From: a virus
Taxonomy: Duplodnaviria > Heunggongvirae > Uroviricota > Caudoviricetes
Length of the DNA stretch: 64,000 nucleotides
Virus record (IMG/VR): IMGVR_UViG_3300028048_000105
Reading direction: 5' to 3' (one strand)
The translations under genes and the position numbers were made by a program. The notes below the pieces were generated by a model. That model searched no databases, had not been told where the DNA came from, and saw only the letters and a program-made list of their open reading frames with translations. Shown here piece by piece: positions 1,966-60,402 of the stretch (positions are counted from its first letter, which is position 1; each line of letters opens with the position of its first letter).

Positions 1966-1994
1966 CCATTTTGCAAATCGTCAAATAGAATCAG
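1966..1994 (-). promoter_or_regulatory. Module A conserved promoter copy (TTGACG-N18-TATACA on minus strand)
   Basis: ATATTGCGCCAT..AATCGTCAAA repeat; 10 copies in the window, all in the same orientation. Confidence 0.45.
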
Positions 1995-2080
1995 CTATTT
2001 TTAATATTTTTCGCGGAAACTTTTTTTATCTCATATTGAAAATGTGAACTAAAGAAAACGCATCGAAAGGAGAAAAATTT

Positions 2081-2386
2081 ATGGATACAGAAACAAACAA
2101 AAAAATAGAAGAGCTTAAAAAAGCCTTCTATGAAGCATATAATGAGTACCAAAATCTGGAGGAACATCCCGAACTCATACAGGACATCCGGGCACTGTAT
2201 GCATTAAAACGCAAGCTGACGGTATACAGCGTTCTGGCTGACCGCTTTGGACAGGGATTATTTACCATTCGTGTCCAGAATTCAACCTACAAATGTATCA
2301 AGTATTTCCTTGATACCGAAAAAAGCAAGGTAGACTCCTTCAAAACAATGATGGAACTCTTTCTTGAGGAAGAACAGGCGTGCTAA
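2081..2386 (+). CDS. hypothetical small protein (module B upstream)
   Basis: ORF preceded by CATATTGAAAATGTGAAC..ATCGAAAGGAGA module. Confidence 0.5.
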   Translation: MDTETNKKIEELKKAFYEAYNEYQNLEEHPELIQDIRALYALKRKLTVYSVLADRFGQGLFTIRVQNSTYKCIKYFLDTEKSKVDSFKTMMELFLEEEQAC

Positions 2387-2490
2387 CAGCCTGCTCTTTT
2401 TTTTATGCAAATTTCCTCTCTCAAAACAGGAATACATATTAATGATGTAACTGGCATACAAACCCATCAGGACCATCAGGAGGAAGAAAT

Positions 2491-3457
2491 TATGTTTTTT
2501 GGAATTGGAAATAAAAAGAAAAAGCAGGTACAGACCGGCGTGGGAAATCCGCTACCTTTCTCCACGTCTGCCGCACCGGATCGGAAATCAGTAATAAATG
2601 TATCAAACCTGCAGACGAGCATCCAAATTGATGAGACATTATTGGAATCTGCTCTGCAAAAACTTGACAAAATGACAGGGCTTTCATCCATCAAGCAGGA
2701 TGTGCGCAATCTTGTCCAGCTGCAGAAACTTAATATTGAACGGGAAAACCGTGGAATGAAAACAGCACAGATCTCAAACCATCTCATTTTCCTTGGAAAT
2801 CCCGGCACTGGAAAAACAACCGTTGCCCGGATTATTGCTGATATCTACAAAGCCTTAAATGTGGTCGAGCACGGGCAGTTGATCGAGACTGACCGTTCGG
2901 GACTTATCGGGCAGTATCAGGGACAGACTGAGCAGAAAACAAAACAGATCTTAAGTGAAGCTGACGGAGGAATCCTGTTTATTGATGAAGCATATTCCCT
3001 CGCGTCCGGAGAAAATGATTACGGACAGCGGGCAATCGAAATTATCCTGAAAGAGATGGAAGATAACAGGAATAACCTTGTTGTAATTGTGGCCGGATAC
3101 CCAAATGAGATGCAGCGTTTCTTAAACTCCAACCCCGGGCTTTCCTCCCGTTTCGGGAAAACCCTGCAGTTTGAAAATTACTCACCGGATGAAATGTATG
3201 TGATCTCGCAGTCCTACGCCATGGAAAGCGGCTACATTCTCGATAATAGCTGTTTCGATGTCCTTAACAATTATTATGCATCAGAATGTAAGAAGCCGGA
3301 TTTCGCCAACGGAAGACTTGCCAGAAAGACTGTGGAATCCTGCATTAAGGCGCAGGCAGTAAGACTCACCGGAAAAAGTCCCCTAATTGCATTTTCCGAC
3401 AGAGACTTAAACACCATTGAAAAAACTGACTGCCAGAAAGCTATCCAGATGTTGTAA
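2491..3457 (+). CDS. AAA+ ATPase, CbbX/SpoVK-like
   Basis: Walker A GNPGTGKTT, Walker B LFIDEAYSL; AGGAGG RBS before the ATG at 2491 (ORF-track start 2405 is probably too early). Confidence 0.75.
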
Positions 3458-3509
3458 TTTCCAATAGGATTATCACAAAGAAAAAGCTGCGCAAAATCGC
3501 GCAGCTTTC

Positions 3510-5186
3510 TTATTCAGCAGCCTCCACATACTCCGCATTAATCTGCAGGGATGTTTTGCCTTTATACGTATTTGTTGACAGTCTGCCTACAACATTCAGT
3601 TTTTTCGGTTTTCCCATCTCCTTGTACTTTTCAGAAGCATTAAACCACAGAACATCAATTCCCTCACAAAAGAGTTTCAGATGCTGTTTTTCAGAACCCA
3701 TCTCTCGGAATAAATCACCAAATTTGTTTTCCTTGAGTTCCAACCCTTTCAGGCAGACAACCGGTTCTTCGTTTCCAACCCCGTATGGACCATATTTCCG
3801 GACATCTTTGTAAAGCGCATATAAGGTATGCACATTTCCATCAATATCATAAAATACGACGTCATCTCCAGGCTCTTCCACTTTTTCAATCAGATCACAC
3901 ATCATTTGCCGGAGCGTATCGATGTTTTCAATCTGGATGGAAGCTCCGCACGCAGCCGGGTGCCCTCCGTACTGGAAGAACAATCCGCTGCATTTATCCA
4001 TTACGGCTTTCAGGTTACACCAGTCACGGCTGCGCCCGCTACCAACGCAAATACCATTTTCCGGAGCACCAAATACAATGCTTGGAACCTTGTATTTCTC
4101 TGTCAGGTTTCCCGCAATAATTCCGCAGATACCTTTCAGAAAACGGTCATCCTGAAGCACCAGTACAGAATTGTTCATCTGTCCGGTTTCCTCGACCATT
4201 TTCTCTGCCAGTTCCGTCAGTTCCTTGCAATACGTTTTCCGCTCATCATTCATCTGTTTAACGATCTGTGCGGCATTTTTCGCTCCGTCAGATTTCCGTC
4301 CGGTATAAGATAACAATGCGGCAACTTTGCGGCTGCCTTCATCCTCCAGACGTCCAAACGCATTGATAGCCGGTACAAGGGAATATGCAATGTCTTCTAC
4401 AGAAAGTGTATCGCTCAGCTTCATTTCTTCAAGAAGAAGAGCAAGCCCGGTGGAAACACGTTTCTGCTCGATTTGTTCCATTCCTCTTCTTACAAGGAAG
4501 CGGTTTTCAGCCTTCATTGTAACACTGTCACCGACGGTTCCGACTGCAGCAAGTGCAATCATGGAAGACATGATACCGTTTAAATCAGCAGGTCTTCTCT
4601 TCTTTGCGAAAACTTCTCGCATGAAACGGTATGCCAGCCCCGCACCGCAGTAATCCTCAAAATCAGCTTCTGTGATGTGAGGATCAATCATAACATCAGC
4701 TTCTGGAAGGAACTGCTCACCATTTAAGATACGGGCTTCATGGTGGTCAAGAATGATCACTTTCATACCCTTTTCTTTTGCGGTATCAACCGCTTCATTT
4801 GCTGCGATGCCGTTATCTACGGTAATCAGCAGTCCGGACGGATCCATGTTCTCAAGATTTTTTACCTTGATTCCATAGCCGTCTGTAAAACGGCGCGGAA
4901 TAATAATGTGCGGCTTAATCCCGATGGAATTGCACCCGATGGAAATAATACTTCCGGATGTGATTCCATCGCAGTCGTAATCACAGTAAACATAGACTGG
5001 ACTGTCAATCATTGACCAGAAGAGATCAACCGCTTTATCCAGCCCTGCTATGTTTAACACGTTTTTGCACTTTCCGGAAACTTCTCTCTCCAGTTCCTGC
5101 GGGGTAACTCCAAGCCGGGATGCGACCAATTCCATAACGGAATTCGTTTTGCTTCTTTTTACAATCCTTTTCTTTTCTGCACTCAT
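3510..5186 (-). CDS. recJ: RecJ-like ssDNA exonuclease (DHH/DHHA1 phosphoesterase)
   Basis: DHH family motifs VYCDYDCDGITSG and ILDHH; 558 aa. Confidence 0.7.
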   Translation of the reverse strand: MSAEKKRIVKRSKTNSVMELVASRLGVTPQELEREVSGKCKNVLNIAGLDKAVDLFWSMIDSPVYVYCDYDCDGITSGSIISIGCNSIGIKPHIIIPRRFTDGYGIKVKNLENMDPSGLLITVDNGIAANEAVDTAKEKGMKVIILDHHEARILNGEQFLPEADVMIDPHITEADFEDYCGAGLAYRFMREVFAKKRRPADLNGIMSSMIALAAVGTVGDSVTMKAENRFLVRRGMEQIEQKRVSTGLALLLEEMKLSDTLSVEDIAYSLVPAINAFGRLEDEGSRKVAALLSYTGRKSDGAKNAAQIVKQMNDERKTYCKELTELAEKMVEETGQMNNSVLVLQDDRFLKGICGIIAGNLTEKYKVPSIVFGAPENGICVGSGRSRDWCNLKAVMDKCSGLFFQYGGHPAACGASIQIENIDTLRQMMCDLIEKVEEPGDDVVFYDIDGNVHTLYALYKDVRKYGPYGVGNEEPVVCLKGLELKENKFGDLFREMGSEKQHLKLFCEGIDVLWFNASEKYKEMGKPKKLNVVGRLSTNTYKGKTSLQINAEYVEAAE

Positions 5187-7032: not shown

Positions 7033-8088
7033 TCAGGATCTGTCAAGATCTTCCGTAAAATCAAGTTCCTCCCGTCCTGTTTCCTCAAGATTACTTAAAA
7101 GTGAATGCAATTCTTCACGTATCGATTCCCCGTTTTTCTGCAACTCAATCCCTTTTTCGATGCATTTCCTTTTGTAGTCACGTTCCTTGATTTCCCGTTT
7201 TAATCTTTCATTCTCCTCCTGCATCTGCTTAAGAATTTTTCTCTGTTCATTTTTCTCTCTATAAGCATCATCTCTCTGCTTCACCAGCTCTTCTGGAATT
7301 TTATTCTTTTCCTCATTTACAACCGATCCATCACCGCCATCCATAAAATCATCTTCCGCGGTCCGTCCGTCATCAAGGATTATATTTTTCATATATTCCT
7401 GTCTCTGGTTTACTTCCTTCGTAAGCTTCTCTGCATACCGGGAATTCTTTTTCAGATGTTCCGTACTCTGCCGCCTTGGGGTTTCCCCTGTGTTAAATCT
7501 TACGTGGTACTTTTCGTTGCACAGCTTTTCAACTGCCTGGTTCATTTTCAGGATATTGGTCAGGGAAGAGAAATCCTTGTTGCTTAATTTTCCATTTACC
7601 TCCGGAACAACCTGAATGTGAATGTGAGGTCTGGATACTTTAATCATTCCGTCTTTCGCATCCGTGTAAGGAGCGATCTCATCAAAGTGGCTTGTTGCGC
7701 TGATGATATTCTCATCCCCGAATTTTTCCCGGCACATATCGTAAAAATCTTGAAACAACTCCTTTGCTTTTTCATTTGTCATTCCAAGCGGTACCGGCAT
7801 TTCCAGACTTGTCATTTCAATCCGGTCATCCCTTTTGTTTGTATTTGTTGTTCTATCCAGTTCCGCAAGACGTTTTTCCCATTTTTCCCTTGATTCCTTC
7901 CATGACATTCCTGTGAAGTTTTGGTTTTGATATGACTTTGACGGATCAATCTCGATATTGCTGTGCTGCTTTGTTGGATCAGCTCGGAACGTCTGATCAC
8001 AATGTTTTAAAAGATTTACTCCGCGGATATGATCTTTTTTGCTGCATTTTGCACTTCCGTGATTGCCGCCCCAGTTAACTGAAGACAT
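7033..8088 (-). CDS. mob: MobV-family relaxase (plasmid recombination/mobilization protein, Mob_Pre)
   Basis: SHFDE...RPHIHIQVVP..NGKLS motif like pMV158 MobM HxDE/HxH; coiled-coil C-terminus. Confidence 0.75.
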   Translation of the reverse strand: MSSVNWGGNHGSAKCSKKDHIRGVNLLKHCDQTFRADPTKQHSNIEIDPSKSYQNQNFTGMSWKESREKWEKRLAELDRTTNTNKRDDRIEMTSLEMPVPLGMTNEKAKELFQDFYDMCREKFGDENIISATSHFDEIAPYTDAKDGMIKVSRPHIHIQVVPEVNGKLSNKDFSSLTNILKMNQAVEKLCNEKYHVRFNTGETPRRQSTEHLKKNSRYAEKLTKEVNQRQEYMKNIILDDGRTAEDDFMDGGDGSVVNEEKNKIPEELVKQRDDAYREKNEQRKILKQMQEENERLKREIKERDYKRKCIEKGIELQKNGESIREELHSLLSNLEETGREELDFTEDLDRS

Positions 8089-8179: not shown

Positions 8180-8800
8180 CTTTGCCCCCAGTACTTTCTT
8201 GCTTTCTCGCCTTCTTGCTTTCCTCCCAATCCTCCACCCACACCTCTCATCTGCCATCTGCTCCACGGAACCCTGTTTCCACATCATCCTTCCTTTCTCA
8301 CATCTCACCCCACATTTATCCCCTCTTTTCTTCCACGAAGTCTTTCTTGCGCTCTTGCGTTTTCACGTTTTTACGTTTTAACACTCTTGCACTCTTGTGT
8401 TCACTCTGCCCGCGCTCCGCCCAGTACTTCCTGCACAATAAGTCCGCGCTAACCTCACACTGCACCACAGTCCACTTACCCGCGCTCAGTTATAAAACCA
8501 CCGTACATAAGTCCGCGCCCACACCACTCCACGCATCAAGAAGTTTATGGAACTATCCTCCACTTTCCCCCCTATATTTCCATCTTTTTCCCCACCTCTA
8601 TACATTTTCACACCGTACAGATAAAGTATTCCCTCCACTTTGGCATATTTCTCGCATTCTTGCATTCTCGCGTTCTGCCTGCAATCCACGCCCTCACACC
8701 TCACATCTGCTACCCACACTACAGGTTCCCTGCCCGCATTTTTTTCTTGCATTCTCGCGTTGTTCCCTTGTGCTGTACTCACGCTCTGTACGCCATGCAT
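8180..8800 (+). repeat. Polypyrimidine (C/T-rich) tract with short TCTTGC / CTTGCATTCTCGCGTT repeats
   Basis: Plus strand is almost purine-free over about 600 bp; repeated CTTGCATTCTCGCGTT at about 8655, 8740, 8960, 9365. Confidence 0.6.
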
Positions 8801-8819
8801 CGCGCTACGGAAACATACC

Positions 8820-10085
8820 ACCTTAGTGATACTATTTTACACATTCCAAGGTGGTTTCCCAGTACCATCCCTGATCTTCCTATGTCCTCCTGTATTTCCG
8901 GTACCAGTAACGGTATCACCTTACGGATACTAAATGATACCACCTTGGTGATACTATTTCTTGCATTCTTGCATTCTTGTGTTCTCGCGCCCCACACGTT
9001 TTGTCCGTACTGTCTTCTTGCACGTCCTTATGAACTTTTACGGTATTCTTTCTTACCTTTCCCTTTTCCTTCCCGCATTCACCCTTCTGCGGCGCCACAC
9101 AAGCACATTTGTACTGTATATGCGCCGCAAAGCATCAGTGTCTGTAGTATCATAAAGCGGTCTGGCCGGCTCTGCCCGGAATAAAAGCACCAGATGACCG
9201 CCGGGATACCCTGCTTCTTCCTTGTCTCTCCCACGTACTCCACACGTTTTCTCTGTCCTCTACCATGTATCATATCAGTAAGGTGATACTTTTGTTTTCT
9301 TTTTACTTCCCATCCCCTCCCCCTTATGTTCAAGGTGTATCCCTGTTTTGTCCTGTTATTCCTGCTTTCTCGCGTTCTTGCGGTAAGATTTGTATCAGTA
9401 AGGTGATACTACATAGTACCAACAAGATGATACAAAATGGATTGCCACGGTCGTTTCTGTATTCAGTACCATAAAGGTGATACTATTTAGTATCAGTAAG
9501 TTGATACTTTTGAACATAAAAAATACTCCCACCATCCCCTGCCTACCGCTTCCTATACTTATTTCACAGGCTTGCGCGGAACCAGGCGCGGAACCAGGGA
9601 GAAAATGGGAAAGAAAAAGAATACCATACGGGTGATACTACTTAGTATCAATAAGGTGATACTGTTTAATATCAGCAAGTTGATACGAAAGTGACAGGAT
9701 CTGTATGTTTTCATTTATTTAGTATCATACGTGTGATACTATATAGTACCAATAAGGTGATACTATCTAATACCACAAAGGTGATACTATTTGGACAGAT
9801 TTGTAAAGGAACAGTAGTATCACCCGGTTTTCTTGTATTTCCTATGCTTCTTCCCCAACCCTTACGGTATTTGCCTAACCCCCTCGAATTCGATGGGTTT
9901 AAAATAGTATCACTGAAAAATAGTATCAGTAGCAATCTGTCTTTATCCGGATATTTCCTTATCGGTATGTGGGAGCTGGTTTACTGAAACTATTTTTGAG
10001 ATGATACTATTTTCTGTTCTTCTAGTGATGCCATTTTTGTTGTTTTTCTTTACTCCGGCCTGCTTTACTGATACTATTTTCCACC
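8820..10085. repeat. Iteron array: about 20 copies of GGTGATACTA(T) in both orientations (candidate replication origin / Rep-binding region)
   Basis: Copies at about 8826, 8946, 9283, 9401, 9425, 9471, 9495, 9641, 9664, 9690, 9738, 9762, 9786, 9820, 9905, 9925, 9997, 10066; many form TAGTATCA..TGATACTA inverted pairs. Confidence 0.6.
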
Positions 10086-10338: not shown

Positions 10339-10761
10339 ATGGAAAATAAAAGAGAAAACAATAAAAGTTATGAATATCATTCATCATCCCATTTAAAATA
10401 TTTATGCCGTTATCATGTGATCTTCTGTCCGAAATACAGAAGAAAGATCTTAGTTAATGGTATTGACGAACGGCTGAAAGAAGTGTTTACAGAAACAGCC
10501 AAAGAACACGACTTCAGCATCATAGAGATGGAAGTCATGCCGGATCATGTACATCTGCTTATTGACTGCAACCCCAGATATGGGATCATGCAGTGTATTA
10601 CAGACCTCAAGTATGGATCTGCACATGTACTCGGGCGGGAATTCCCGTCCATCCGGAAAAAGATCCCTTCCATTTGGACACGCAGCTGTTTTGTAGCAAC
10701 CGTAGGAAGTGTTTCCTTTGATGTTGTAAAACAGTACATAGAATCACAGAAAGGAAAATAA
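10339..10761 (+). CDS. tnpA: IS200/IS605 family transposase TnpA (Y1 HUH)
   Basis: HVHLLIDCNPRYG HuH motif; 140 aa; typical N-terminal YHV..P KYRR. Confidence 0.85.
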   Translation: MENKRENNKSYEYHSSSHLKYLCRYHVIFCPKYRRKILVNGIDERLKEVFTETAKEHDFSIIEMEVMPDHVHLLIDCNPRYGIMQCITDLKYGSAHVLGREFPSIRKKIPSIWTRSCFVATVGSVSFDVVKQYIESQKGK

Positions 10762-10764
10762 ACC

Positions 10765-27882: not shown

Positions 27883-27883
27883 T

Positions 27884-38598: not shown

Positions 38599-38606
38599 TT
38601 AAAAAA

Positions 38607-50284: not shown

Positions 50285-50287
50285 ATT

Positions 50288-53200
50288 TTACTCCTTGTTG
50301 TGTGTGAACTCTGATATTTCCTCGATATCAAGATGCTTCTTCTTGTTTACAAGGTCATATATGAGCTCTGCAATAGGCCTGATTGCCTGCGGATCATCGA
50401 GGATCTGCGTGGCAAGCTGTCCAAGCTCATTGTTCTTAAGCGACAGGGCAGCGACCTTGATGATATTTTCAAGCCTTCCGTCAGCGATAATGGCTTCCTT
50501 GCTGTTTGTTGAGTTTCTTATCTGGATACGGCTTACGTCATCAGCTGATACTGAATCCACAATGGCATTGACCGCTCTTGCGCCTTCAACAGCAGGAACA
50601 TCTTCACCAAATGCTTCATTCAGCTTTTCTACAATTTCTTTCAGAGATGATCTCTTTTTCTTTGAGGTGCCGGAACCCGAGCCCATAGGACGAAGGATTG
50701 CCGGATCATCGTCACCGCCGGGAAGAGGTCTGTCTACTTCGCTTATGCGGTAATCGGACAGTACAAGGCTTGAAATATCAATCTCTTCAAGGGCTGTTCC
50801 GTCAAGCCTCTTTAATAGCAGCTTTGCGAAGCCATAGAAAATCTCAAGTTCAGGCTCACCAAGGTCTACTATCTGCGAAATAAAGGTATAGGAGGAACAG
50901 TATTTCTTAAGGTCTTTCTTGAAATCAAGAAGTTTTTCCTGTTCTTTTCCAATCTCTTCCAGTTTAGTTTCTGCCTGTGCCAGAAGATCGTTATTGCCCG
51001 TTCTCTTTGCTTCTTCCTTATTGGAACTCCATGTGGCAAAGGAGTTATGGTTAGCCTTGTAAGCATTGTTCCATCTCTCGGCAGGGGCAGATACAGCCTG
51101 ATACAGTTTCTTCCTGTATGCGTCCTTTACGGATGCAGAAATAGCGTCTATGGACTTGTAACGGACATCCCGATAAATATTTATCTCATCCTGTGTATAG
51201 ACATCACGTTCATCAAGACGCTTCTTTGTGTCATATACGATTTCAAGTTTCTGGGCATGTTCCATATGTGCGCCGCGGTCATACTTATTAAAGGCTCTTT
51301 CCACGGTCTCAGGATCATTTACGAAGTCCACCACGAATACGTGATCTTTTCCTGAGAATGTACGGTTAAGACGGGAATAGGTCTGCACGATCTCGATGTC
51401 GTTACAGAGCTTCTTGTCAATGTACATAGCGCAGAGCTTTGGCTGGTTAAAGCCCGTCTGGAACTTGTCACACACGATCATGATGCGATTTTCAGGCTTG
51501 TCAAAGGCAACTTCCACCTTCTGATAACCGATATTGTTGGAATTCTCTTCCGTGTAGTCATAGTCCCTGCGGATGGCAGCAAAAGGATTCTCCTTAAGGT
51601 ACTCAAACTCCGTGATTGTGTTCTCGTCCTCATCTGTGATAGCCATAGCGCCATTTACCTTGCCGGAGAATGCCACAAGGGGTTCGCCCGGTACCTGAAA
51701 ACGGATGGCATCTTTTACCTTTTCCCTGTCATATTCAGGGTGTGCGTTAAGATACGCTTCAATAGCATACTTATAGCGGATAACAGCGGGACGGGACGAT
51801 GCTACGATCATTGCCTTTGCCTGTCCGCCAAGCATCATGGAGACATTCTTTATGAAATGCTCGATGATAAACTGTGTTTTTTGCATTACATTGGTAGGAT
51901 GCAATGACTCCCACATGGCGATGGTTCGCATTGCAGCATGTTCATCCACAAGTTTGTCCGACACGATATCCTCTTTCAGCTTATATGCGGTCTTGTAAGG
52001 TATATAACCCTGTAAAACGTCAAGGATGTAACCTTCCTCAATAGCCTGTCTCATAGGATACAGATCAAATGATTCGGGAATAGGCCTGCCGGTCTTTTCA
52101 TCAATTTTATCAGAGTCACGCCCGAATAATGTCTTTGTTTCGGGTTTTGGAGTAGCGGTATAAGCAAAGAATGATACGTTCTCAGGCCATGTGCGGTCCC
52201 CCTGCTCATTCTTGAAATAGGCAAGTATCATTTCTTCATCAGTTACAGCAGCGTCAGGATCGCCAGTTTCCTTGGATTTGTCTTTTGACGCAAGTTTAAG
52301 GGCAGCTTTCATTTTTCCTGCAAACTGTCCCGTCTGGGAAGAATGTGCCTCGTCGATAAGAACAGCAAAGTTAGCGCCTTCGAGCATATCATCAGATGCT
52401 ATCTCTTCAAGGGCAAACGGGAATGTTTGGAGGGTAACAACAATGATCTCCCGTCTGTCATGTAGAGCTTTTGCGAGCTGTTTGTTCTTCGCTCCCTGCG
52501 AACGGGTACCCTCGTCACCACCGATCATTTCAATAAGGCCGGGAGTCTTTTTGAGCTGCTTTATCGTGCCCTTGATGTTGGAATCAAGCCCTACACGGTC
52601 TGTAACAACGATTACCGAAGAAAATACCTTTTCTCCGTCAGGCTTTCTGATATTGATAAGCTCATGGGCAGTCCATGAGATCGTCTCCGTCTTTCCAGAG
52701 CCTGCGGAATGCTCTATGAGGTAGCGTCTGCCAACACCGTTATCCTTTACATCGTTAAGGCACTTTGTAACACAGTTCCACTGATGAAAGCGTGGGAAAA
52801 GCTGTGTACGGACTTCCTTGAGCCTTCCCGTGGCATCTTCCTTCTTTGATACGCTCTCAAAGATGAAATCATGAAAAATGCGGAGCCAGTTTTCCTTCTG
52901 GCATATCTCGTTCCAGAAATAGCCTGTAGGATAATCATCAGCGCCATCTTTCATTGGATCATTGCCTGCGTGACCGTCAGAGGTCCCCTTGTTGAACGGA
53001 AGAAAATGCGGTTCATCCGGTTCAAGGTTGGTGCACATCCAGATCTCATCCTCTGAAATAGCAAAATGAACGACAGCACCACGTTTGTACATCAGAAGAG
53101 GGTTCTTTCTTCTTGTGCCGGGTTCAATAGGCTTTCTTTGGGTCTGATATTCTTCAATAGCATCCTGCACTGTCTGGGTAAGCTCTGTCTTTATTTCAGC

Positions 53201-53668
53201 AGTAGCAACAGGAATGCCATTGATGAAGAATACAAGGTCAAGCGATTTATTTCCTGCGGTCTGATAGTGTACCTGGTGCATCACCCTGAGAATATTAGCA
53301 TTATATTTCTGCTTGATATTGGGAATACGGGTATCGTCAGGGTAATGGCCTGAACACTCAATGGTCTGATAGCCCGCCATTACAAAACCGTTACGAAGTG
53401 TCTGCACGGTTCCGTCAACTTCAAGAGAATTGATAAGTGCCTTTTCAAGGTTTCCTTTCCAATTTGTTCCAAATCCTTTCTGCATCTTTTCGATCTTATC
53501 AGGTGATATGGCAGTAACATAGTCAATAAAATCATCAAGAACAAGAGCAGTATTAGCATCAAAACCTGCGTCATTCTTGCTGATCTGCCAGCCATTTTTT
53601 GACAGTTCTTCGAGCTTACGGCTGATATAGTGCTCAAAGTTTGTTTCCAGTCTGATGTCTTCAGGCAT
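50288..53668 (-). CDS. hsdR: Type I restriction enzyme R subunit HsdR
   Basis: SF2 helicase motifs SAGSGKT, DEAH (LIDEAHSS); 1126 aa. Confidence 0.85.
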   Translation of the reverse strand: MPEDIRLETNFEHYISRKLEELSKNGWQISKNDAGFDANTALVLDDFIDYVTAISPDKIEKMQKGFGTNWKGNLEKALINSLEVDGTVQTLRNGFVMAGYQTIECSGHYPDDTRIPNIKQKYNANILRVMHQVHYQTAGNKSLDLVFFINGIPVATAEIKTELTQTVQDAIEEYQTQRKPIEPGTRRKNPLLMYKRGAVVHFAISEDEIWMCTNLEPDEPHFLPFNKGTSDGHAGNDPMKDGADDYPTGYFWNEICQKENWLRIFHDFIFESVSKKEDATGRLKEVRTQLFPRFHQWNCVTKCLNDVKDNGVGRRYLIEHSAGSGKTETISWTAHELINIRKPDGEKVFSSVIVVTDRVGLDSNIKGTIKQLKKTPGLIEMIGGDEGTRSQGAKNKQLAKALHDRREIIVVTLQTFPFALEEIASDDMLEGANFAVLIDEAHSSQTGQFAGKMKAALKLASKDKSKETGDPDAAVTDEEMILAYFKNEQGDRTWPENVSFFAYTATPKPETKTLFGRDSDKIDEKTGRPIPESFDLYPMRQAIEEGYILDVLQGYIPYKTAYKLKEDIVSDKLVDEHAAMRTIAMWESLHPTNVMQKTQFIIEHFIKNVSMMLGGQAKAMIVASSRPAVIRYKYAIEAYLNAHPEYDREKVKDAIRFQVPGEPLVAFSGKVNGAMAITDEDENTITEFEYLKENPFAAIRRDYDYTEENSNNIGYQKVEVAFDKPENRIMIVCDKFQTGFNQPKLCAMYIDKKLCNDIEIVQTYSRLNRTFSGKDHVFVVDFVNDPETVERAFNKYDRGAHMEHAQKLEIVYDTKKRLDERDVYTQDEINIYRDVRYKSIDAISASVKDAYRKKLYQAVSAPAERWNNAYKANHNSFATWSSNKEEAKRTGNNDLLAQAETKLEEIGKEQEKLLDFKKDLKKYCSSYTFISQIVDLGEPELEIFYGFAKLLLKRLDGTALEEIDISSLVLSDYRISEVDRPLPGGDDDPAILRPMGSGSGTSKKKRSSLKEIVEKLNEAFGEDVPAVEGARAVNAIVDSVSADDVSRIQIRNSTNSKEAIIADGRLENIIKVAALSLKNNELGQLATQILDDPQAIRPIAELIYDLVNKKKHLDIEEISEFTHNKE

Positions 53669-53682
53669 TTTTATATCCTCCT

Positions 53683-55065
53683 TTATCTGAGATAATAGGC
53701 AGCCTGTCTGCCAAGATTAAGTGTAAGTGCTTCTTCAAATCCTCTTGATACATCACTCTGTCTGCTCGAAGCATGAGTACATTCATGTATCAGGGTTCCT
53801 GCAAAGGCTTCAATAGATGAAAGCTGAGAGCGCTTTATCCATACAATGCCTTTCTTTGCATCCCATAATCCGAGTGTCTGTGATTTCTGTTCATCAGAGT
53901 ACAGCTCCTCAGATATTTTTATGCTTGAAACAACGCCCGGTAGTCCGCCCATGAAAGCTAATATTTCGGGCATTTTGTTGTAAACGTCCTGCTCGGCTTT
54001 TGTAAGCGCAGATATATCTATTGCGTCACCAGAGAAGGATTCGTTTTTCTTCTGGTTGTATTTTCCTATTGTTGTTACACTTCGGATGGAAGTAGCTTTT
54101 TCTTTGAGCTTGTCAGGAATGATAAATACCTGGTATCCGTCATCCTGAGCATCGGATATCTCCATGCGCCGATTCACCGCTTCCTCGCCCGTAACAAACA
54201 GAAGCTTGTTATTGATGCGGGATAGCTGTTCTATAACATACATCTGAACATCAATCCAGTTCATTTCATCGTGTCCGCCGCCCTTTACGACCATTTCAAG
54301 GTCTTTCATAAGAGATTTAAGAACATCCTCATTTTCGGCGCTTTTAACGATATTTTTAACGGAATCTGTATAAGCAGCACGACCCACGTTATCACGCTCC
54401 CTGTTAAGAGCTTTTCGGAGTTTTGTCGGGAGGTTTGTGATGTTGTAGGAATAGAGGAAATTGCTTTCCTCAGCTACTTTTACGCCATGGATATAGATGT
54501 TTGCAGGCTTACGAAGTGGTTTATCAAGTATCTGCCCGAAACCTGTGGATTCCAATACTATTTCATCTGAAAAGCACAGGAACAGCCTCTTTGCTGTTTC
54601 GATATCTTCATCACTACACCCCTCAAGAGAGAAGTCTGTACCGACCATTTCAGCGTCATCAGGATCAGATATCTCAGCATGAAGCGTAGTTACATCATCA
54701 AATCCTTCCTTCTGAAGCTGTTTAAGCCTAATAGTGCCATATTTTGAACGGATAACCACCTTTATGTCATGACGAAAGAACACCGCAAGGGAATCCTTTA
54801 AACCGACACCAAACTTACCGATAAGACCGTCTGCGGAGAGCTTTTCGTCATTCTCATTCTGCGTGAGATGATGATAATTAAGCCCCCTGCCATAGTCGGT
54901 AATATGCCAGATGCCATTTTCTTTATGGATACTGATATCAGCTGTTCTTGTCAGTTTCTGTTCATCGAGCGCATTTGCGATAACTTCTCTGACAGCATGG
55001 TAAACTTCCCAGTTTTCCAGTATCTTTTCTATATTGAGATCAAATTCTTTAACCATAGGTATCAA
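53683..55065 (-). CDS. GHKL (Bergerat-fold) ATPase fused to C-terminal HExxH region
   Basis: N-box EVIANALDE, G1 box DYGRGL, C-terminal LIHECTHA. Confidence 0.55.
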   Translation of the reverse strand: MIPMVKEFDLNIEKILENWEVYHAVREVIANALDEQKLTRTADISIHKENGIWHITDYGRGLNYHHLTQNENDEKLSADGLIGKFGVGLKDSLAVFFRHDIKVVIRSKYGTIRLKQLQKEGFDDVTTLHAEISDPDDAEMVGTDFSLEGCSDEDIETAKRLFLCFSDEIVLESTGFGQILDKPLRKPANIYIHGVKVAEESNFLYSYNITNLPTKLRKALNRERDNVGRAAYTDSVKNIVKSAENEDVLKSLMKDLEMVVKGGGHDEMNWIDVQMYVIEQLSRINNKLLFVTGEEAVNRRMEISDAQDDGYQVFIIPDKLKEKATSIRSVTTIGKYNQKKNESFSGDAIDISALTKAEQDVYNKMPEILAFMGGLPGVVSSIKISEELYSDEQKSQTLGLWDAKKGIVWIKRSQLSSIEAFAGTLIHECTHASSRQSDVSRGFEEALTLNLGRQAAYYLR

Positions 55066-55673
55066 AACACCTTCTGCATTCGTTGTAATGCTTCATCCCT
55101 GTTATCGCTATGGAACACTTCTTTATCAAATGTATCAAGCTGAACTTTCTTATATTCGTCAGCGTGATTGTAGTATTCAATAGCGTTACTGCATAGAGCA
55201 TAAATAAGGACACCCATATTAACAACAGGTCTGCCAAATTGCCATTTACCATCAACAAATGATTGTGATTGAATGGGATATTCAGCATTGGAATACGCCA
55301 TATCAAACAGATAATGTTCACCTTTCATATCACCTTCATGAGTGAGATTGTTTCTCAACCCGTAAAGTCTGTTTGCAAGATGCTCCATTCCGTCAGTATA
55401 CGCACTGTCTTGGGTCGGGCAGTTGTCCTTGCATACATTCATTTCTGAATTCAGATTATGACAATTCAAACAAGAGATAGTGGCCTCTATTGGGCATACG
55501 CCTTTCAGAAAATCTTTTGTCCATTGCTTATAGTGGTGTCCCACCCCTGTGTTTGGATATTCCACCTTGCCACATATATCAGGTAATGATATAGCAGCAG
55601 GAAGAACAACACGCCCAAACCCTTGCTTTCTCGCCTTTTCAATTTCTTCGCAATACTCTATGAAATGACTCAT
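55062..55673 (-). CDS. hypothetical Cys-rich protein, partner of the GHKL ATPase
   Basis: 203 aa, overlaps both neighbours by 4 nt. Confidence 0.45.
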   Translation of the reverse strand: MSHFIEYCEEIEKARKQGFGRVVLPAAISLPDICGKVEYPNTGVGHHYKQWTKDFLKGVCPIEATISCLNCHNLNSEMNVCKDNCPTQDSAYTDGMEHLANRLYGLRNNLTHEGDMKGEHYLFDMAYSNAEYPIQSQSFVDGKWQFGRPVVNMGVLIYALCSNAIEYYNHADEYKKVQLDTFDKEVFHSDNRDEALQRMQKVF

Positions 55674-56929
55674 ACAACCTCATTTCTGCAATCAATTTTG
55701 CCTGTAACAGCGTAGTAAATAAGGGATTTTTTGTATTCTTCCCATTTGTTTATAGCCTCTTGCTTTTTAGCAATAAGAGAATCAACAGAAGCGCATTTCT
55801 TATGAATGTAGTTCACAATATCCGTCTGTTCTTGCTCCGAAGGGACAAGCACATAAGTCCTAACAAAGTCCCAGTAATCAAGGCTTTGGCGCAAGCCACC
55901 ACCCATACTATAAAATACCTTTTCTATGTCATAGCAATGGAGCAGATAATGATAATATTCTGAGTTCACACCTGCCTTGGGTTTTAATGTCATATATGCC
56001 GATGTGATGATGCCGCGTTCTTTTACAAGTCCGGTTCTAAGACTTCTATGGTCATTTTGAAGATCCGTACCACGAATAACAATATCATCGGCTTCAACAA
56101 TGTTGTATCCGTCAAATGATTCCGGAAGAAGTCCCTCTTTGGTATCAATGTTTTTACGAATAATGTTTCCATAGCTGAGCGATAAAAGGTTCTTTTCCTG
56201 CAAATACTTATTTTTATTGAGTCTGCGAGAATAAAACTTGCGGAGCTGTTTAACCCCCCACATCTCCGGCACCTCACCAATCCACTCAACCCCCGAATCT
56301 TTCATCATCGTATCCGGATCAAGCCCCTTTGTCACAGCCTTTGTAATGACAGCCTTCTTGTATTCTTCCAGTTTCTCAATGGATTTCTTTGTCTTTTCGA
56401 TTGCTGTGTCGATGGCTGAGCACTTGCGGTCAAGGAAACTAGCAATCTGGCGCTGTTCATGTAATTCTGGGAATACAATATAAGAATTATTCATTATCCC
56501 CATGGTAATGAAGCCCATGGTTGTCTCATGGATTTCTGCTTTTAATGCTTCAGTAATGGTAGATAAATAATAAAAGGCAAATTTTTTATCAATGTTGTTT
56601 GAAAGAATTGCTTTCCAAATATGGTAGTGGAATATAACCTTATCCCCCGACCATATAAATGGTGCATACGACATAGACCAAGCATAAAGCAAGTCACCAT
56701 TACAACAGTATTTTTCAGGTTCCAATTCCAAACTTGATGTATACCATGTGGGATTTGTAAAAAGGTTTCCAACTCTTAATACTCGGTATTTCCCGTTTTC
56801 TTCAAACTCGGAATCTTTATACGCTCTTCCATTAAGAAGCTGTATTTCATATTTCTGTTTGCAACAATTCCAATCAGAAGGAATTTGACCTATCCATTTG
56901 ATTCCTGAATCTTTCAGCTCTCTGCTCAT
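55670..56929 (-). CDS. hsdS: Type I R-M specificity subunit HsdS (two TRDs)
   Basis: Two target-recognition repeats each beginning ..W.GQIPSDW / ..WIGEVPEMW; 419 aa. Confidence 0.8.
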   Translation of the reverse strand: MSRELKDSGIKWIGQIPSDWNCCKQKYEIQLLNGRAYKDSEFEENGKYRVLRVGNLFTNPTWYTSSLELEPEKYCCNGDLLYAWSMSYAPFIWSGDKVIFHYHIWKAILSNNIDKKFAFYYLSTITEALKAEIHETTMGFITMGIMNNSYIVFPELHEQRQIASFLDRKCSAIDTAIEKTKKSIEKLEEYKKAVITKAVTKGLDPDTMMKDSGVEWIGEVPEMWGVKQLRKFYSRRLNKNKYLQEKNLLSLSYGNIIRKNIDTKEGLLPESFDGYNIVEADDIVIRGTDLQNDHRSLRTGLVKERGIITSAYMTLKPKAGVNSEYYHYLLHCYDIEKVFYSMGGGLRQSLDYWDFVRTYVLVPSEQEQTDIVNYIHKKCASVDSLIAKKQEAINKWEEYKKSLIYYAVTGKIDCRNEVV

Positions 56930-58983
56930 ACAAACACTCCCTTCAGAGCCTCTTCAATCTCAGGCTCAAGAGCTTCCAGTTCTGCCATTATCTCTGCCGG
57001 ATCACGGGGAGCTTCATAATGGTAGAAGTATTTGTCAAAGGATATCTGCGTTCCGACAACGCCTGTCTTTTGGTCGCCCATTACTCCTGTATCAATAACA
57101 GTGTCATCAACCCATGCATCGGGCACGTAAGGATATACTTCTTTCTCCATGTATTCGTTGATGTCCTGCTCAAAAGGTACTTTTTCGACATCCTTAAGAT
57201 CAGGATCGGGTACGGGCTTGCCGTTCTTGTCGTAAACAATATCCTCATCATCCTCAGTCTTTACCCCAAATACCTTAATAAAGGCATCCTGAAGCTGCTT
57301 ATTTGTTATCTCGGGCTTATCAAGTTTATCCCTGAAATCAGATGAGTGACTGATGAACCAGTTATACTTAACAGTCTGACCGTCCATGGCTGCTACAGCA
57401 CGCTTTAATGTATCCTTGTTGGTCTCGGATAGTTTCTGCATAGCTTTTATCTCAAACAGTTCATCCCACTTTTCAAGGTCAAATGTAACCACCTGTTTAA
57501 GTGGTCTCTGTACAGTAACAGCACGGTACATGAACTCTTCAACAGGAAGAAGCTCTGACTTGCCGCCGTTATGTCCGTCAATATAGGTCTGGATGATCCA
57601 TTGCATTTTTGCATCCGGAATATCCTTACGCTTATTTCCAAGAGACTTCCTGCGAAGCTCGCCGCAATCAGAAGCATCAATGAGCTGTATCTTGCCTTTG
57701 CGGTTATCATCTTTCTTTGTGCTCAGAATCCACAGATAGGTGTTGATGCCAGTTCGGAAAAAGATATCCGTTGGAAGTTTTACTACGCAGTCAACGAGAT
57801 CGTTCCTAAAGAGCCATCTTCTTATATCAGAAGGGCCCGAACCTGCATCACCATTAAAGAGAGGAGATGCAGAAAGGACGATACCCGCCTTTGCGCCACC
57901 TTCTTCTTCAGTCTTCATGTGAGCGACCATATTCTGAATAAAGAGCATAGAGCCGTCGCTTATTGACGGAAGACCGGCTCCAAAGCGTCCTGCAAATCCA
58001 TGGTTCGCCTCGGCACGGACTTCCTCTGCCTCTTTTTCCCATTTTTTACCGTAAGGCGGATTTGAAACACAGTAGTCGAAGTGCATATCTTCGAATTGGT
58101 CGTCCGAAAGTGTATCAGCGTTCAGGATATGAGCTGACAAATCTTTTGTCTGATCGTATACATCTTTCTCCGTATCAGAAACATTTCTGATAAGAAGATT
58201 GGCCTTACCCATAGCCCATGTAACGCCGGATAGCTCCTGTCCGTAAGGGACAATGACAGCAGGAGCTTTCATCTGCTTGTTTTCATGCCATTCATTAAGA
58301 AGATCCAGAGCATCAGTAATAAACCCGCCTGTACCGCATGTCTGATCATAAAGAGTTCTTACGATACCTGTATCAGAGCTCATAAGCTCATCATCATTGG
58401 CAAAGATCATACCTATAGCGAGCCTTACAATATCCTTGGGGGTCATGAAATCTTCGGCGTCCTCAGCAATCTCATCGCCGTAACGCTGTATAAGGTGTTC
58501 ATATATATCCGACATATCCCTGTCGGTAACTGTATCTGAATCAAAGGGTAAAGCAGAGAACTTCTGACATACGGAATAGAGCATACCGTTATCATGCAGC
58601 TTCTTGCAGGTATTCTCCATTTCAAATTTAAGTAAGATATCACGGGCATTTGGTGAAAAGCCGTTGATATAAGAATCAAGAGCAGCGTAGGTATCTGATG
58701 CTCCGAGATTGTTAAGCCTGAATCCGGTCACGTTATAAAACGCCTTGCCGGAATACTGACAGTAGTTGTCGGACTCACGCCCCCAGTCATCCTCATGCTC
58801 TTCAAGTGCAGCACATACGGCAGCTCTTGTTGGTTCAAGAGCGCACTCAAGCCTTCTGAGAAGTGCAAAAGGCAGGACTACCTTGTTATAGTCTGCCCTG
58901 GATATTACATCCCTAACGTAGTCTGCGATGTTCCAAATCTCATTAACATAGTCCAGATTTGTTTTCTTTTGTTCTTCAGCCAT
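56926..58983 (-). CDS. hsdM: Type I R-M N6-adenine methyltransferase HsdM
   Basis: HsdM_N signature IWNIADYVRDVI, catalytic NPPYG, SAM-binding motifs; 685 aa. Confidence 0.85.
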   Translation of the reverse strand: MAEEQKKTNLDYVNEIWNIADYVRDVISRADYNKVVLPFALLRRLECALEPTRAAVCAALEEHEDDWGRESDNYCQYSGKAFYNVTGFRLNNLGASDTYAALDSYINGFSPNARDILLKFEMENTCKKLHDNGMLYSVCQKFSALPFDSDTVTDRDMSDIYEHLIQRYGDEIAEDAEDFMTPKDIVRLAIGMIFANDDELMSSDTGIVRTLYDQTCGTGGFITDALDLLNEWHENKQMKAPAVIVPYGQELSGVTWAMGKANLLIRNVSDTEKDVYDQTKDLSAHILNADTLSDDQFEDMHFDYCVSNPPYGKKWEKEAEEVRAEANHGFAGRFGAGLPSISDGSMLFIQNMVAHMKTEEEGGAKAGIVLSASPLFNGDAGSGPSDIRRWLFRNDLVDCVVKLPTDIFFRTGINTYLWILSTKKDDNRKGKIQLIDASDCGELRRKSLGNKRKDIPDAKMQWIIQTYIDGHNGGKSELLPVEEFMYRAVTVQRPLKQVVTFDLEKWDELFEIKAMQKLSETNKDTLKRAVAAMDGQTVKYNWFISHSSDFRDKLDKPEITNKQLQDAFIKVFGVKTEDDEDIVYDKNGKPVPDPDLKDVEKVPFEQDINEYMEKEVYPYVPDAWVDDTVIDTGVMGDQKTGVVGTQISFDKYFYHYEAPRDPAEIMAELEALEPEIEEALKGVFV

Positions 58984-59205
58984 TAGTTACTCCTTTATAT
59001 TAAATGTTATTTTCAACCACTTTTTGAGGAAACACCCCTATTAAAATATATCACACATACACGTACGTTTCAACCACTTTTTGAGGAAACACTACTTATA
59101 TTATGGTAATAAAAATAGCCAGGTAGAACAATGTCTACCTGACTATATGCTTTTGATATTTCAACCACAGAGGGTTATATATTTTGCTTATTCAGATATA
59201 GGTTT

Positions 59206-59652
59206 TCAACCACTTTTTGCGGTTAGCCTTTCTTCCATTGTATCACCTGGAACCATTCCGTATCCAACATCCTTACTGAAAGCTTTGTAATACTGTCCGA
59301 TACATTCACACAGCTTCTCAAAATTTTCAACACGGCATTTCTTCCCATCGTTAGCGAAATCATACTGTAATTCGTTACATTGATTACTTGCATTGACATA
59401 CTCTTCCGCAATCATATACATTTCCTTTAATTTCTTTGAAGCAAACCCGGCTTTGAAGACACCATGGTAAAATACCAGTACAGGTCCTGCAACCAACAGA
59501 ACAATTCCTACAAGATACAAAAATCCAAGCCCAATAACAAGAAACTCATATCCAACTGCCTGAAAATATTCAGCTGCTCCAGCCCCGGTCTTTCCGACAC
59601 TCGTCATCGCCTCCGTCGCATGCTGCAACAAATCAAGATACTTGTTTAACAT
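59206..59652 (-). CDS. membrane protein, hypothetical
   Basis: 148 aa with central hydrophobic helices. Confidence 0.4.
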   Translation of the reverse strand: MLNKYLDLLQHATEAMTSVGKTGAGAAEYFQAVGYEFLVIGLGFLYLVGIVLLVAGPVLVFYHGVFKAGFASKKLKEMYMIAEEYVNASNQCNELQYDFANDGKKCRVENFEKLCECIGQYYKAFSKDVGYGMVPGDTMEERLTAKSG

Positions 59653-59775
59653 CTTCTTTTTTCCTCCTTAAATCACAAACAATTTACAATTATGCTGCAA
59701 AAACAAAAGCATGGACTGGCCACACATTTCTCATACCGCCTCTTCCTTTCTGCGGGTTTCCAGCTTTTCCACGGT

Positions 59776-60000
59776 TCAGAGAATATGCTGGCAGACAAGT
59801 CCGCGCTCTAAGATGTTGTATTCAAAATCCGTCGAGGTTCCAAATTCCGGGAAATACTGAGAACCGTGGATATAGGGAATTCCCTTCCATTTCCCGGACG
59901 TATCACACTTGATGATGCCGTAAGAGTTGAGGTCCGGGCACCACACGGGCTGCCCTTGCATGTTTTTCAATTCTTCCAAAGTTAATGCTTCTTTGCTCAT
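59776..60000 (-). CDS. small hypothetical protein
   Basis: 74 aa, preceded by tRNA-like leader variant and module A. Confidence 0.4.
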   Translation of the reverse strand: MSKEALTLEELKNMQGQPVWCPDLNSYGIIKCDTSGKWKGIPYIHGSQYFPEFGTSTDFEYNILERGLVCQHIL

Positions 60001-60002
60001 TC

Positions 60003-60224
60003 TTTTTCCCCTTTCTTCTTATACGAAAGGAATCCTCCGGACTCGAACCGGATGAACAGCCACTTTGTGTCCAGTGCTGGCAAAGCTCTGTGGACTCCTC
60101 CTGTACTGCCCCGTAACAGGAGGACAGCGCAGTCATAGATATACATTTAAAATTCGGAGGTCTGTGGAGAGACGAATCTCCACAGGAAAAGGCAGGACCA
60201 TGAATCCTTTTATGCCTTTTCAAT
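60003..60224 (-). ncRNA. tRNA-like structured leader element, copy 5 (divergent; T-arm CCGGUUCGAGUCCGG, acceptor GGAGUCC/GGAUUCC)
   Basis: Between module A (60225-60258) and the 59776..60000 start. Confidence 0.35.
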
Positions 60225-60402
60225 ACACATATTGCGCCATTTGAAAAATCGTCAAAGGATTTCGGAAACTTTTTAATTTTTTTTCAAAGTTTTTGAGAAA
60301 ATCTTTGGAAAAGAGAAAATATAGGAAAAATTGCCACGAAGGTTGCCATAAAAAAGAGCCCGTCATCAGACGAACCCTTTCATTTCATTTCATTTTATTC
60401 CA

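Follow-up and report, generated by a model that had tools for sequence, protein, structure and literature searches.

Module A copies in the window

The stretch of DNA analysed here, called the window throughout, comprises 64,000 nucleotides (nt) of the IMG/VR record IMGVR_UViG_3300028048_000105. This study concerns a repeated block in it, named Module A, which lies in front of minus-strand genes such as a cas operon, a flotillin gene and a helicase gene. The 12-mer ATATTGCGCCAT was found in nine exact copies, all on the plus strand and thus read on the minus strand (positions 1958, 21392, 25810, 27886, 33028, 38753, 41369, 48294 and 60229). The tenth copy, at 28357, was degenerate (ATATTGAGCCTT). 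The composite pattern of ATATTGCGCCAT and AATCGTCAA gave six exact matches in the window versus none in 100 shuffles, and independent repeat finding returned a single family of ten copies of 62 nt in one orientation. A 61-nt position weight matrix (PWM) was built from the ten copies, and both strands and shuffled sequence were scored with it. The ten copies scored 57.7–83.6 bits. No further site in the window scored above 5 bits on either strand, and the maximum in the shuffles was about 0 bits. Module A is a genuine, strongly non-random feature with exactly ten members in the window. The first-pass annotation had put the number of minus-facing copies at about ten, with coordinates that were right to a few bases. 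The copies and the units behind them are listed below, with protein lengths in amino acids (aa), open reading frames (ORFs) and Shine–Dalgarno (SD) sequences.

1946–2006, minus strand: Module A copy 1 (57.7 bits); TTGACG 1984–1979, CAATAT 1963–1958, putative +1 at 1950. Behind it lie an HNH endonuclease gene (343 aa, ORF 911–1942, TTG start 1933; Pfam HNH) and a PilZ protein gene (77–718; Pfam PilZ). The SD-preceded start is 25 nt beyond CAATAT.
21380–21440, minus strand: copy 2 (78.1 bits); putative +1 at 21384. Behind it lie a 240-aa gene (20573–21295) and then about 25 small minus-strand ORFs down to about 14927 (YopX, HNH, Lar-like; Pfam), in a gene order kept in the related loci L180–L185. 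The ATG is 97 nt past CAATAT, and a hairpin terminator (21498–21470) stands immediately upstream.
25798–25858, minus strand: copy 3 (79.8 bits); putative +1 at 25802. Behind it lies cas5d-cas8c-cas7 (25787 to 22398; Pfam Cas5d, Csd1, Cas7), and copy 3 probably drives the CRISPR array 22146–21777 too. The conserved GAAAGGG is the SD, the ATG is 23 nt past CAATAT, and a 19-bp hairpin terminator (25907–25867) stands just upstream.
27874–27934, minus strand: copy 4 (70.1 bits); putative +1 at 27878. Behind it lie a class-1 tRNA-like RNA (about 27878–27733; RNA repeat family D2/D4/D13, covariation) and a 178-aa gene (27162–27698).
28345–28405, minus strand: copy 5, degenerate (AAGGCTCAATAT; 60.6 bits); putative +1 at 28349. 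Behind it lies the gene of a 110-aa cysteine-rich protein (ATG 28328), with AGGAGG and the ATG 29 nt past CAATAT. The identical variant is present in relatives, and the copy stands back to back with a plus-facing copy (28421) of a second block, Module B.
33016–33076, minus strand: copy 6 (62.4 bits); putative +1 at 33020. Behind it lies the flotillin gene (31092–32876; Pfam Band_7, Flot), with a leader of about 145 nt and the ATG 152 nt past CAATAT.
38741–38801, minus strand: copy 7 (67.5 bits); putative +1 at 38745. Behind it lie a class-1 tRNA-like RNA (38745–38601), a zinc-ribbon 101/113-aa gene and downstream genes.
41357–41417, minus strand: copy 8, a TTGACA variant (77.0 bits); putative +1 at 41361. 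Behind it lie a class-1 tRNA-like RNA (41361–41217) and a superfamily 2 helicase gene (38850–41153; Pfam ResIII, Helicase_C).
48282–48342, minus strand: copy 9 (70.2 bits); putative +1 at 48286. Behind it lie a 79-aa gene (48006–48245) and a 172-aa gene (47396–47914), with the ATG 49 nt past CAATAT.
60217–60277, minus strand: copy 10, the best match (83.6 bits); putative +1 at 60221. Behind it lie a class-2 tRNA-like RNA (about 60221–60028) and a 148-aa gene (59206–59652).

Distribution of Module A beyond the window

Human-gut metagenome contigs were scanned with a 19-base pattern, and more than 117 stretches were found among the matches listed. Flank scoring showed the full extended block in 117 of 123 metagenome loci, likewise among the matches listed. 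When one genome per species was scanned with a 17-base pattern, 60 matches were obtained, which equals the chance expectation, and flanks were scored to separate true loci. Three true isolate loci were left: one in the Roseburia faecis JCM 17581 chromosome and one on each of two contigs of the Lachnospiraceae isolate MGYG-HGUT-00136. There were at least 122 distinct Module A contexts, at least 74 of them with unrelated downstream sequence. At least 49 unrelated families were represented among the first genes downstream, and tRNA-like small RNAs of two classes were also found in this place. By Pfam, the first genes included those for helicases, nucleases, Cas5, flotillin, ParA-like ATPase, SMC-like, TnpB-like, and secreted or membrane proteins. 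In IMG/VR the motif had two matches only, both attributable to chance, and a literature search on the motif string and on Lachnospiraceae megaplasmids returned nothing relevant.

The R. faecis chromosome holds one or two copies, and its representative assembly has no other exact match. At this locus (L150 10190–10600, identical to L034; also L162 and L086), an intact Module A is followed 220 nt on by a degenerate copy (GGCAACATAT); the two head a short hairpin RNA and a 12-codon ORF (MITYSTLFEFCN) with a strong ribosome-binding site. A MerR-type regulator gene next to these copies has its own canonical promoter. Other copies of Module A also stand in chromosomal-type neighbourhoods, some of them attached to a TnpB-like gene. 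In the related loci, several large TnpB/Cas12f-like genes (628–688 aa) lie directly behind Module A, some in chromosomal-type neighbourhoods.

Anatomy and conservation of Module A

The conserved length of Module A was about 75 bp instead of the 30–45 bp first proposed. Information content was high from about −55 to +13 relative to the putative +1, and the earlier statement that conservation runs well past the −35 and −10 was borne out. On the minus strand, the layout is A/T tracts, TTTGACGATTTT, N3, A.ATGGCGCAATAT,.TATA.TG and a purine-rich stretch. The gap between ATATTGCGCCAT and AATCGTCAA is fixed at N6, where N6–9 had been given. TTGACG (−34 to −29) lies 15 nt from the invariant CAATAT (−13 to −8) and 18 nt from the TAT within it. 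The pair previously drawn as −35 and −10, TTGACG-N17/18-TAT, had to be replaced: the last three bases of that −10 vary, and the invariant hexamer is CAATAT at 15 nt. The conserved bases of the spacer (A.AWGGC) are A(−21), A(−19) and WGGC (−18 to −15).

Upstream, A/T tracts extend from −53 to −39 (AAAAA −53 to −49, TTT −47 to −45, AAA −41 to −39) and are 65–96% conserved. Such phased A- and T-tracts at about −40 to −60 are what is expected of an UP element, with a predicted contact for the C-terminal domain of the alpha subunit. Downstream, information content remained high until about 20 nt past CAATAT (about +13) and then was zero. The first 13 or so bases of the putative transcript are purine-rich and SD-like, and such an SD-like 5' end was found in 44 of 72 copies versus 16 in a control window.

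Conservation was judged on 53 contexts that were not pre-selected by the search pattern. In these, TTGAC was invariant (53/53), with TTGACG as the consensus. AATAT of the hexamer at block positions 43–48 was invariant or nearly so, and position 43 was C, T or A, with T giving TAATAT. A37 was invariant, A35 and G39/G40/C41 were about 90% conserved, and G42 was free (G, T or A). Spacer positions 32–34, 36 and 42 varied freely beside fixed neighbours. Across the at least 122 contexts, the distance from TTGACG to CAATAT was 15 nt without exception and conservation was unbroken from −19 to −8. Orthologous copies in relatives of about 84% identity kept the core while their flanks diverged.

Probable promoter function and the putative start site

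Module A is read here as a promoter because of its placement, its co-orientation with genes, the terminators upstream of it and one RNA 5' boundary. All ten window copies are upstream of minus-strand genes and co-oriented with them, in agreement with the first-pass annotation, and SD-preceded start codons follow 23–230 nt beyond CAATAT. Among copies with enough flank, an SD-preceded ORF began within 300 nt on the same strand in 59 of 72, versus 29 of 72 in the divergent direction. No long open frame crossed the core in about 100 of 120 copies, and a hairpin with a T-run was present within 130 nt upstream in 46 of 120. Judged from the sequence, the Module A copies very probably form a family of promoters and define a regulon of an abundant Lachnospiraceae element.

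The −10 is most likely the invariant CAATAT at its rigid 15-nt spacing. This hexamer has the A at position 2 and the T at position 6 of a −10 element, and TTGACG is TTGACA-like, as a −35 should be. The sigma-A class has a spacer of 16–18 bp, and 15 bp was found in all of the at least 122 contexts. Module A therefore stands outside the canonical sigma-A promoter class. A standard sigma-70 scan with 16–18 nt spacers missed nine of the ten copies, and it found a textbook promoter in front of a tRNA array:

29139–29167, plus strand: canonical sigma-A promoter before the 10-tRNA array; TTGACA, 17 nt, TG-extended TATTAT (11 of 12 matches plus TG).

The G of the conserved T(−1)G(+1), 7–8 nt after CAATAT, is the putative +1, since this dinucleotide is conserved, one homology boundary coincides with it and the short-leader copies need their ribosome site. 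The dinucleotide is 86–89% conserved and agrees with the pyrimidine(−1)/purine(+1) rule. The boundary comes from a class-1 RNA copy that lacks Module A and directly follows a RecG-like gene (locus L155). Its homology begins at ATGTAAAGG, 6–7 nt after the expected end of CAATAT, a position consistent with the start site proposed here. In class-1 RNA, the conserved 5' stem begins with UGUAAA. In the short-leader copies (HNH and cas5), the conserved GAAGGG/GAAAGGG is the sole ribosome site available. Module B has a similar layout, with a −10-like hexamer, N5 and TGTAAA.

Proposed mechanism and search for a controlling factor

We consider it fairly probable that Module A, about 75 bp long, works as a portable promoter cassette whose copies are read by the host polymerase, are jointly controlled by one factor and serve at least ten minus-strand units in the window; initiation, the start site and the factor are what we infer. 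The reader would be the multisubunit RNA polymerase of the host. A bacterial multisubunit polymerase is proposed because of the UP-like tracts and TTGAC, and the host enzyme is favoured because copies exist in the R. faecis chromosome and in chromosomal-type neighbourhoods. The alpha subunits would contact the upstream A/T tracts as an UP-like element, TTGACG would provide the −35-type contact, CAATAT would be the −10, and initiation would take place at T(−1)G(+1), 8 nt after CAATAT. The purine-rich 5' end may be the ribosome site in short-leader copies and perhaps a 5' stabiliser elsewhere. A single sequence-specific factor on the spacer/−10 zone would set the activity of all copies and so make them one regulon. 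A dedicated factor is suggested because the 15-bp spacing is fixed and the spacer bases are conserved position by position. It could be a regulator or a sigma-modifying protein, encoded by the host or elsewhere on the element. Each cassette, together with the gene or RNA downstream of it, would be exchanged as one unit.

The first-pass annotation had placed the cas operon, the helicase, HNH genes and others under one control. Such control is probable for the HNH gene, the small-ORF operon of about 25 genes, cas, flotillin, the helicase and the small RNAs. The plural for HNH genes did not survive: only the 343-aa HNH gene (911–1942) is directly behind Module A, and the IscB-type HNH genes are behind Module B or reached via read-through. 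If the units are co-regulated, Module A provides a ready map of transcription units and a single regulatory handle for an abundant giant element of butyrate-producing gut Lachnospiraceae, a handle that spans CRISPR-Cas, nucleases, helicases, membrane proteins and tRNA-like RNAs. With its fixed spacing of 15 bp and its conserved G+C-rich spacer, Module A departs from sigma-A rules and could reveal a new specificity factor. Module A could also supply a compact portable promoter for Lachnospiraceae genetic tools, and its cassette behaviour offers a mechanism for accessory-gene shuffling in such elements.

Several observations weigh against joint control of a host-read promoter. A 15-bp spacer is poor for sigma-A, and host sigma-A alone may not use Module A. 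The spacer motif is asymmetric and ATGGCGCAAT is merely an 8/10 palindrome, unlike a classical dimeric operator. Pfam searches of nearly all window ORFs (including 10 small ones) and of the neighbours of chromosomal and isolate copies gave no helix-turn-helix (HTH) or ribbon-helix-helix regulator for the block, and no regulator was found among the first genes behind Module A. The repressor that had been expected to match the block was thus not found in the window or beside the chromosomal copies. Since the core was fixed in the pattern that retrieved most copies, its conservation is overstated; the 53 contexts mentioned above are free of this bias. A second −10-like hexamer, TATA.T (−6 to −1), lies 1 nt downstream of CAATAT with a sigma-A-like information profile, and the start could differ accordingly. 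TATA.T was rejected as the main −10: it is absent in copy 1, removes the SD of short-leader copies and cuts the conserved 5' stem of the class-1 RNA. It is treated as an A/T-rich discriminator and flagged as uncertain.

A polymerase of the phage type or a multisubunit polymerase encoded by the element was also considered as the reader of Module A and was rejected: no NADFDGD or RHGxKG motifs were present in the fetched loci or the window.

Comparison with known systems

In the KorA/KorB regulon of plasmid RK2 and the C1 regulon of P1, one conserved site overlaps the promoters of many operons dispersed over a large extrachromosomal element and provides coordinate control. The P1 C1 operators are asymmetric, like the core of Module A. 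In RK2 and P1 only the operator is shared and the repressor genes are known, whereas in Module A the whole promoter is shared from the UP tracts to +13 and no repressor gene was found.

Module A has its nearest analogues in the PeSL cassettes and in the early and middle promoter families of T4. The PeSL/PmSL sequences of T4-type phages have been described as "mobile regulatory cassettes" (Arbiol 2010, PMC2839356; Comeau 2014, PMC4122927). Like Module A, PeSLs are conserved intergenic composites of a stem-loop terminator, an AT-rich tract, −35 and −10 elements and an SD. Both occur in many copies per genome before variable accessory genes. PeSLs are tied to indels and replacements between close relatives, and Module A may be so too. 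In Module A, this composite of terminator, AT tract, promoter and SD stands before at least 49 unrelated gene families. PeSL promoters have an N17 spacer and sigma-70-like hexamers, whereas in Module A the spacer is fixed at 15 nt and carries a conserved G+C-rich motif. Module A further differs from PeSLs in its Firmicute host and plasmid-like element, in the proportion of copies with an adjacent terminator (about 38%) and in that some copies drive structured small RNAs.

T4 early "uber" promoters combine UP, −35, TGn and −10 elements with extra consensus positions and form a temporal class (Hinton 2010, PMC2988021). In T4 middle promoters, a factor box (the MotA box) centred at −30 replaces the normally spaced −35 and is joined to a sigma-70 −10 (PMC2988021). 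TTGACG at −34 to −29 has a similar geometry, which suggests a likeness to MotA promoters, and three promoter classes stand together on one element, as in T4. No MotA/AsiA homologue or activator was identified here, in contrast to T4, and TTGACG is itself a near-consensus −35.

Alternative explanations

It is unlikely, but worth considering, that Module A is the direct site of an alternative sigma factor, host- or element-encoded, with TTGAC as −35, an extended (GGCG)CAATAT as −10 and a fixed distance of 15 nt, so that a separate regulator would be unneeded. This would agree with the rigid spacing, with the continuous conservation from −19 to −8 in at least 122 contexts and with the failure of standard sigma-A geometry. 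Canonical sigma-A promoters and the rigid Module B are found on the same element, as in sigma cascades, and the one or two copies in the R. faecis chromosome indicate that Module A is not a general housekeeping motif. Against it, when 4,366 ORFs from the window and from about 1 Mb of loci bearing Module A were searched by phmmer with regions 2–4 of E. coli RpoD, no protein of the sigma-70 family was detected; this single-sequence search had limited sensitivity and was confined to DNA in the vicinity of Module A copies. Classical sigma-A promoters have TTGAC in their −35, and no match to the sigma-28, sigma-54, extracytoplasmic function or sporulation sigma consensus was seen by eye. The sigma-28 (FliA/SigD) consensus is TAAA-N15-GCCGATAA, and Module A shares its geometry of a 4-mer, N15 and an 8-mer. 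A sigma-28 promoter was rejected, as Module A reads TTGA...CGCAATAT, with 5/8 and 2/4 matches by inspection, and no sigma gene was found near the copies. The sigma-54 consensus is GG-N10-GC (TGGCAC-N5-TTGCW). A sigma-54 promoter was also rejected: although TGGCGC occurs, the TTGC expected at −12 varies or is missing among the copies.

Distinctly improbable is the explanation that Module A is a strong but unregulated sigma-A promoter, whose near-identity comes from recent copying or homogenising recombination and whose extra conserved bases are non-regulatory. Promoter-plus-gene units do act as cassettes. Homology breakpoints fell at the upstream edges of Module A (25859, 27934–27942 and 60294) or inside the 12-mer (38753; relatives L084 and L161), in a comparison that is biased because the loci were fetched for containing Module A and in which one large insertion (48714–59228) is not bounded by Module A. 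One promoter-plus-RNA unit occurs three times in the window and again in other contexts, an indel with a C5-methylase gene begins exactly at the gene's own Module B promoter, and PeSLs have an equal composite layout of terminator, AT-rich tract, −35/−10 and SD (PMC4122927, PMC2839356). By analogy, the breakpoints match the T4 PeSL picture of terminator–promoter–SD cassettes in modular exchange. Copying alone does not fit the position-specific variation, in which free and fixed positions interleave, or the kept core beside flanks of about 84% identity, which points to selection. A 15-bp spacer would also be odd for a merely strong sigma-A promoter, and the breakpoint enrichment suffers from the bias just given.

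On contig OGQJ01000027.1 (locus L113, 9555–12120), a 419-aa protein matches the N-terminal domain of the RNA polymerase beta-prime subunit (Pfam RNA_pol_Rpb1_1, 53 bits). Zipper, lid and clamp-helix motifs were recognised by eye; the catalytic NADFDGD is missing, and the protein has no paralogues. Its gene is followed by that of a 392-aa XRE-type HTH protein, and both stand behind a canonical TTGACA-17-TATTAT promoter. The beta-prime-like protein could be a sigma-binding decoy or modifier, and it is a lead, not evidence.

A broader scheme, which we hold to be very doubtful, is that extrachromosomal elements of very large size (at least 200–450 kb) in human-gut Lachnospiraceae run a T4-like programme of three classes (sigma-A, Module A and Module B) on the host polymerase and make tRNA-mimicking, Y-RNA-like RNAs from Module A. 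Module A would then have a factor box near −30 at a distance of 15 bp from the −10, which would mean that sigma is remodelled or appropriated in a Firmicute, and Module B would be a −10-only class (CATATT-N5-TGTAAAC). The clamp-helix protein of L113 beside its XRE regulator could belong to the sigma-redirecting machinery.

That Module A is a repeat other than a promoter, for example a site for partitioning (centromere-like), for recombination or for integration, or else a miniature transposable repeat, is extremely improbable: Module A is dispersed and highly conserved on a plasmid-like element and coincides with some rearrangement breakpoints, but it is asymmetric and co-oriented with the next gene at a short, SD-containing distance from start codons, it lacks terminal inverted repeats and flanking duplications, its invariant parts are two promoter hexamers, and its conservation stops at about +13, where unrelated transcripts begin. 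A repeat of the miniature inverted-repeat transposable element or repetitive extragenic palindromic type was rejected on the same grounds of asymmetry, missing terminal inverted repeats and an orientation tied to the downstream gene.

Module B and the tRNA-like RNAs

Module B is a second rigid promoter-like class. It consists of a T-run, TTTCATATT, N5, TGTAAAC, then GAAAGGAGA about 33–37 nt after CATATT, and an ATG. Its sites in the window are as follows.

5233, 8128, 43399, 44660, 46673, 61945, 62903 and 63835: Module B facing the minus strand.
2032, 13374, 13699, 28421 and 63874: Module B facing the plus strand.

In the window and the loci together, 61 distinct sites were found, always with 5 nt between CATATT and TGTAAA and often directly after a terminator. 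Modules A and B share the start layout of a hexamer, N5/6 and TGTAAA. The gene set behind Module B differs from that of Module A and includes RecJ, the Mob relaxase, the C5-methylase, the IscB operon and an AAA operon.

Two classes of small RNA follow Module A.

27733–27878, 38601–38745 and 41217–41361, minus strand: class-1 small RNA of about 145 nt, behind Module A.
30889–30985: truncated copy of the class-1 RNA.
About 60028–60221, minus strand: class-2 small RNA of about 195 nt, after copy 10; variants in L064, L080, L087, L098, L117 and L144.

The class-1 RNA has a 5' long-range stem and a hairpin, followed by a tRNA-like 3' module. This module is closed by a 9-bp stem in which three pairs are compensatory, and it also contains a GNRA hairpin and a T-arm (GGGTYCGAYTCCC). 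The RNA of copy 7 had a fold z-score of −3.2, and that of copy 8 carried compensatory changes in the closing stem. At the gathering threshold, Rfam returned tRNAs only. The class-1 3' module gave a sub-threshold match to the tRNA-like domain of Deinococcus Y RNA (RF01053, 26 bits, E=0.008), and a permissive Rfam scan gave nothing meaningful for class 2. Class-2 variants have divergent 5' domains and a common 7-bp acceptor-like stem, in which A-U to G-U changes keep the pairing, with a canonical T-arm (CCGGTTCGAGTCCGG). From these sequence features, class 2 appears to be a second family of tRNA-mimic RNAs.

Nature of the element and other features

The window encodes a MobV-type relaxase, RecJ, cas5-cas8c-cas7 with a CRISPR array, methylases, a type I restriction-modification system, insertion sequences and ten tRNAs, and it has iteron-like repeats. 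Related loci add a DnaE-type polymerase, NrdD, RecG/UvrD-type helicases, ClpX, PARP-like, ParA and SMC-like proteins, and a 3,749-aa protein. The window proteins have exact or near-exact copies on hundreds of contigs of up to 451 kb, which NCBI labels "MAG: Lachnospiraceae bacterium". No capsid, portal or terminase genes were seen in the element. Searches of INPHARED and PLSDB (megablast, blastn and tblastn) found nothing close, only distant MobV relaxases of 26–30% identity, and IMG/VR had no relative of a 547-aa backbone protein. The block had been ascribed to a phage or integrative and conjugative element early programme. This is not supported: no structural phage genes were seen, element and motif are absent from IMG/VR, INPHARED and PLSDB, the element has a MobV relaxase and iteron-like repeats, and related loci carry a ParA-like gene. 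Its overall appearance is that of a very large plasmid-like element rather than of a recognised phage. The logic of its promoter classes is phage-like though the element is plasmid-like.

Iteron-like direct repeats (GGTGATACTA units, about 24-nt phasing) and a CTTGC-rich region lie at 9389–9791 and 8193–8993, adjoined by the MobV-type relaxase gene (7033–8088). The position of the repeats beside the relaxase suggests a plasmid-type origin.

The insertion at 48714–59228 is 10.5 kb long, interrupts the transcription unit of copy 10 and is present in this window only; six relatives join 48713 to 59229. It carries genes for an ISL3 transposase, HsdR, a GHKL-ATPase-like protein, a 203-aa protein, HsdS and HsdM (type I restriction-modification). 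Direct repeats TTTCAACCACTTTTTGAGGAAACAC at 59011, 59068 and 59204 are near one edge of it.

The CRISPR array (21777–22146) downstream of cas5d-cas8c-cas7 is short, with a period of about 68 nt and the repeat ATTTCAACCCATACATCCCATAAGGGATGTAAC. No cas3, cas1, cas2 or cas4 was found in the window. Solitary CRISPR repeats are present at 14725–14771, 27956–27982 and 38120–38166. A duplication of about 165 nt (85–88% identity) pairs 21507–21670, beside the array, with 36119–36288, in the ORF region 36119–36496, and the same pairing was found in six related loci.

The segments 33189–34919, 41654–43117 and 10339–12321 encode two IscB-like proteins (RRXRR+HNH) as well as an IS200-type TnpA and its TnpB-like partner of 518 aa. 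The array of ten tRNAs (29542–30818, plus strand; promoter from 29139) is on the strand opposite most genes, and its tRNA at 30463–30546 has an anomalous anticodon loop according to ARAGORN.

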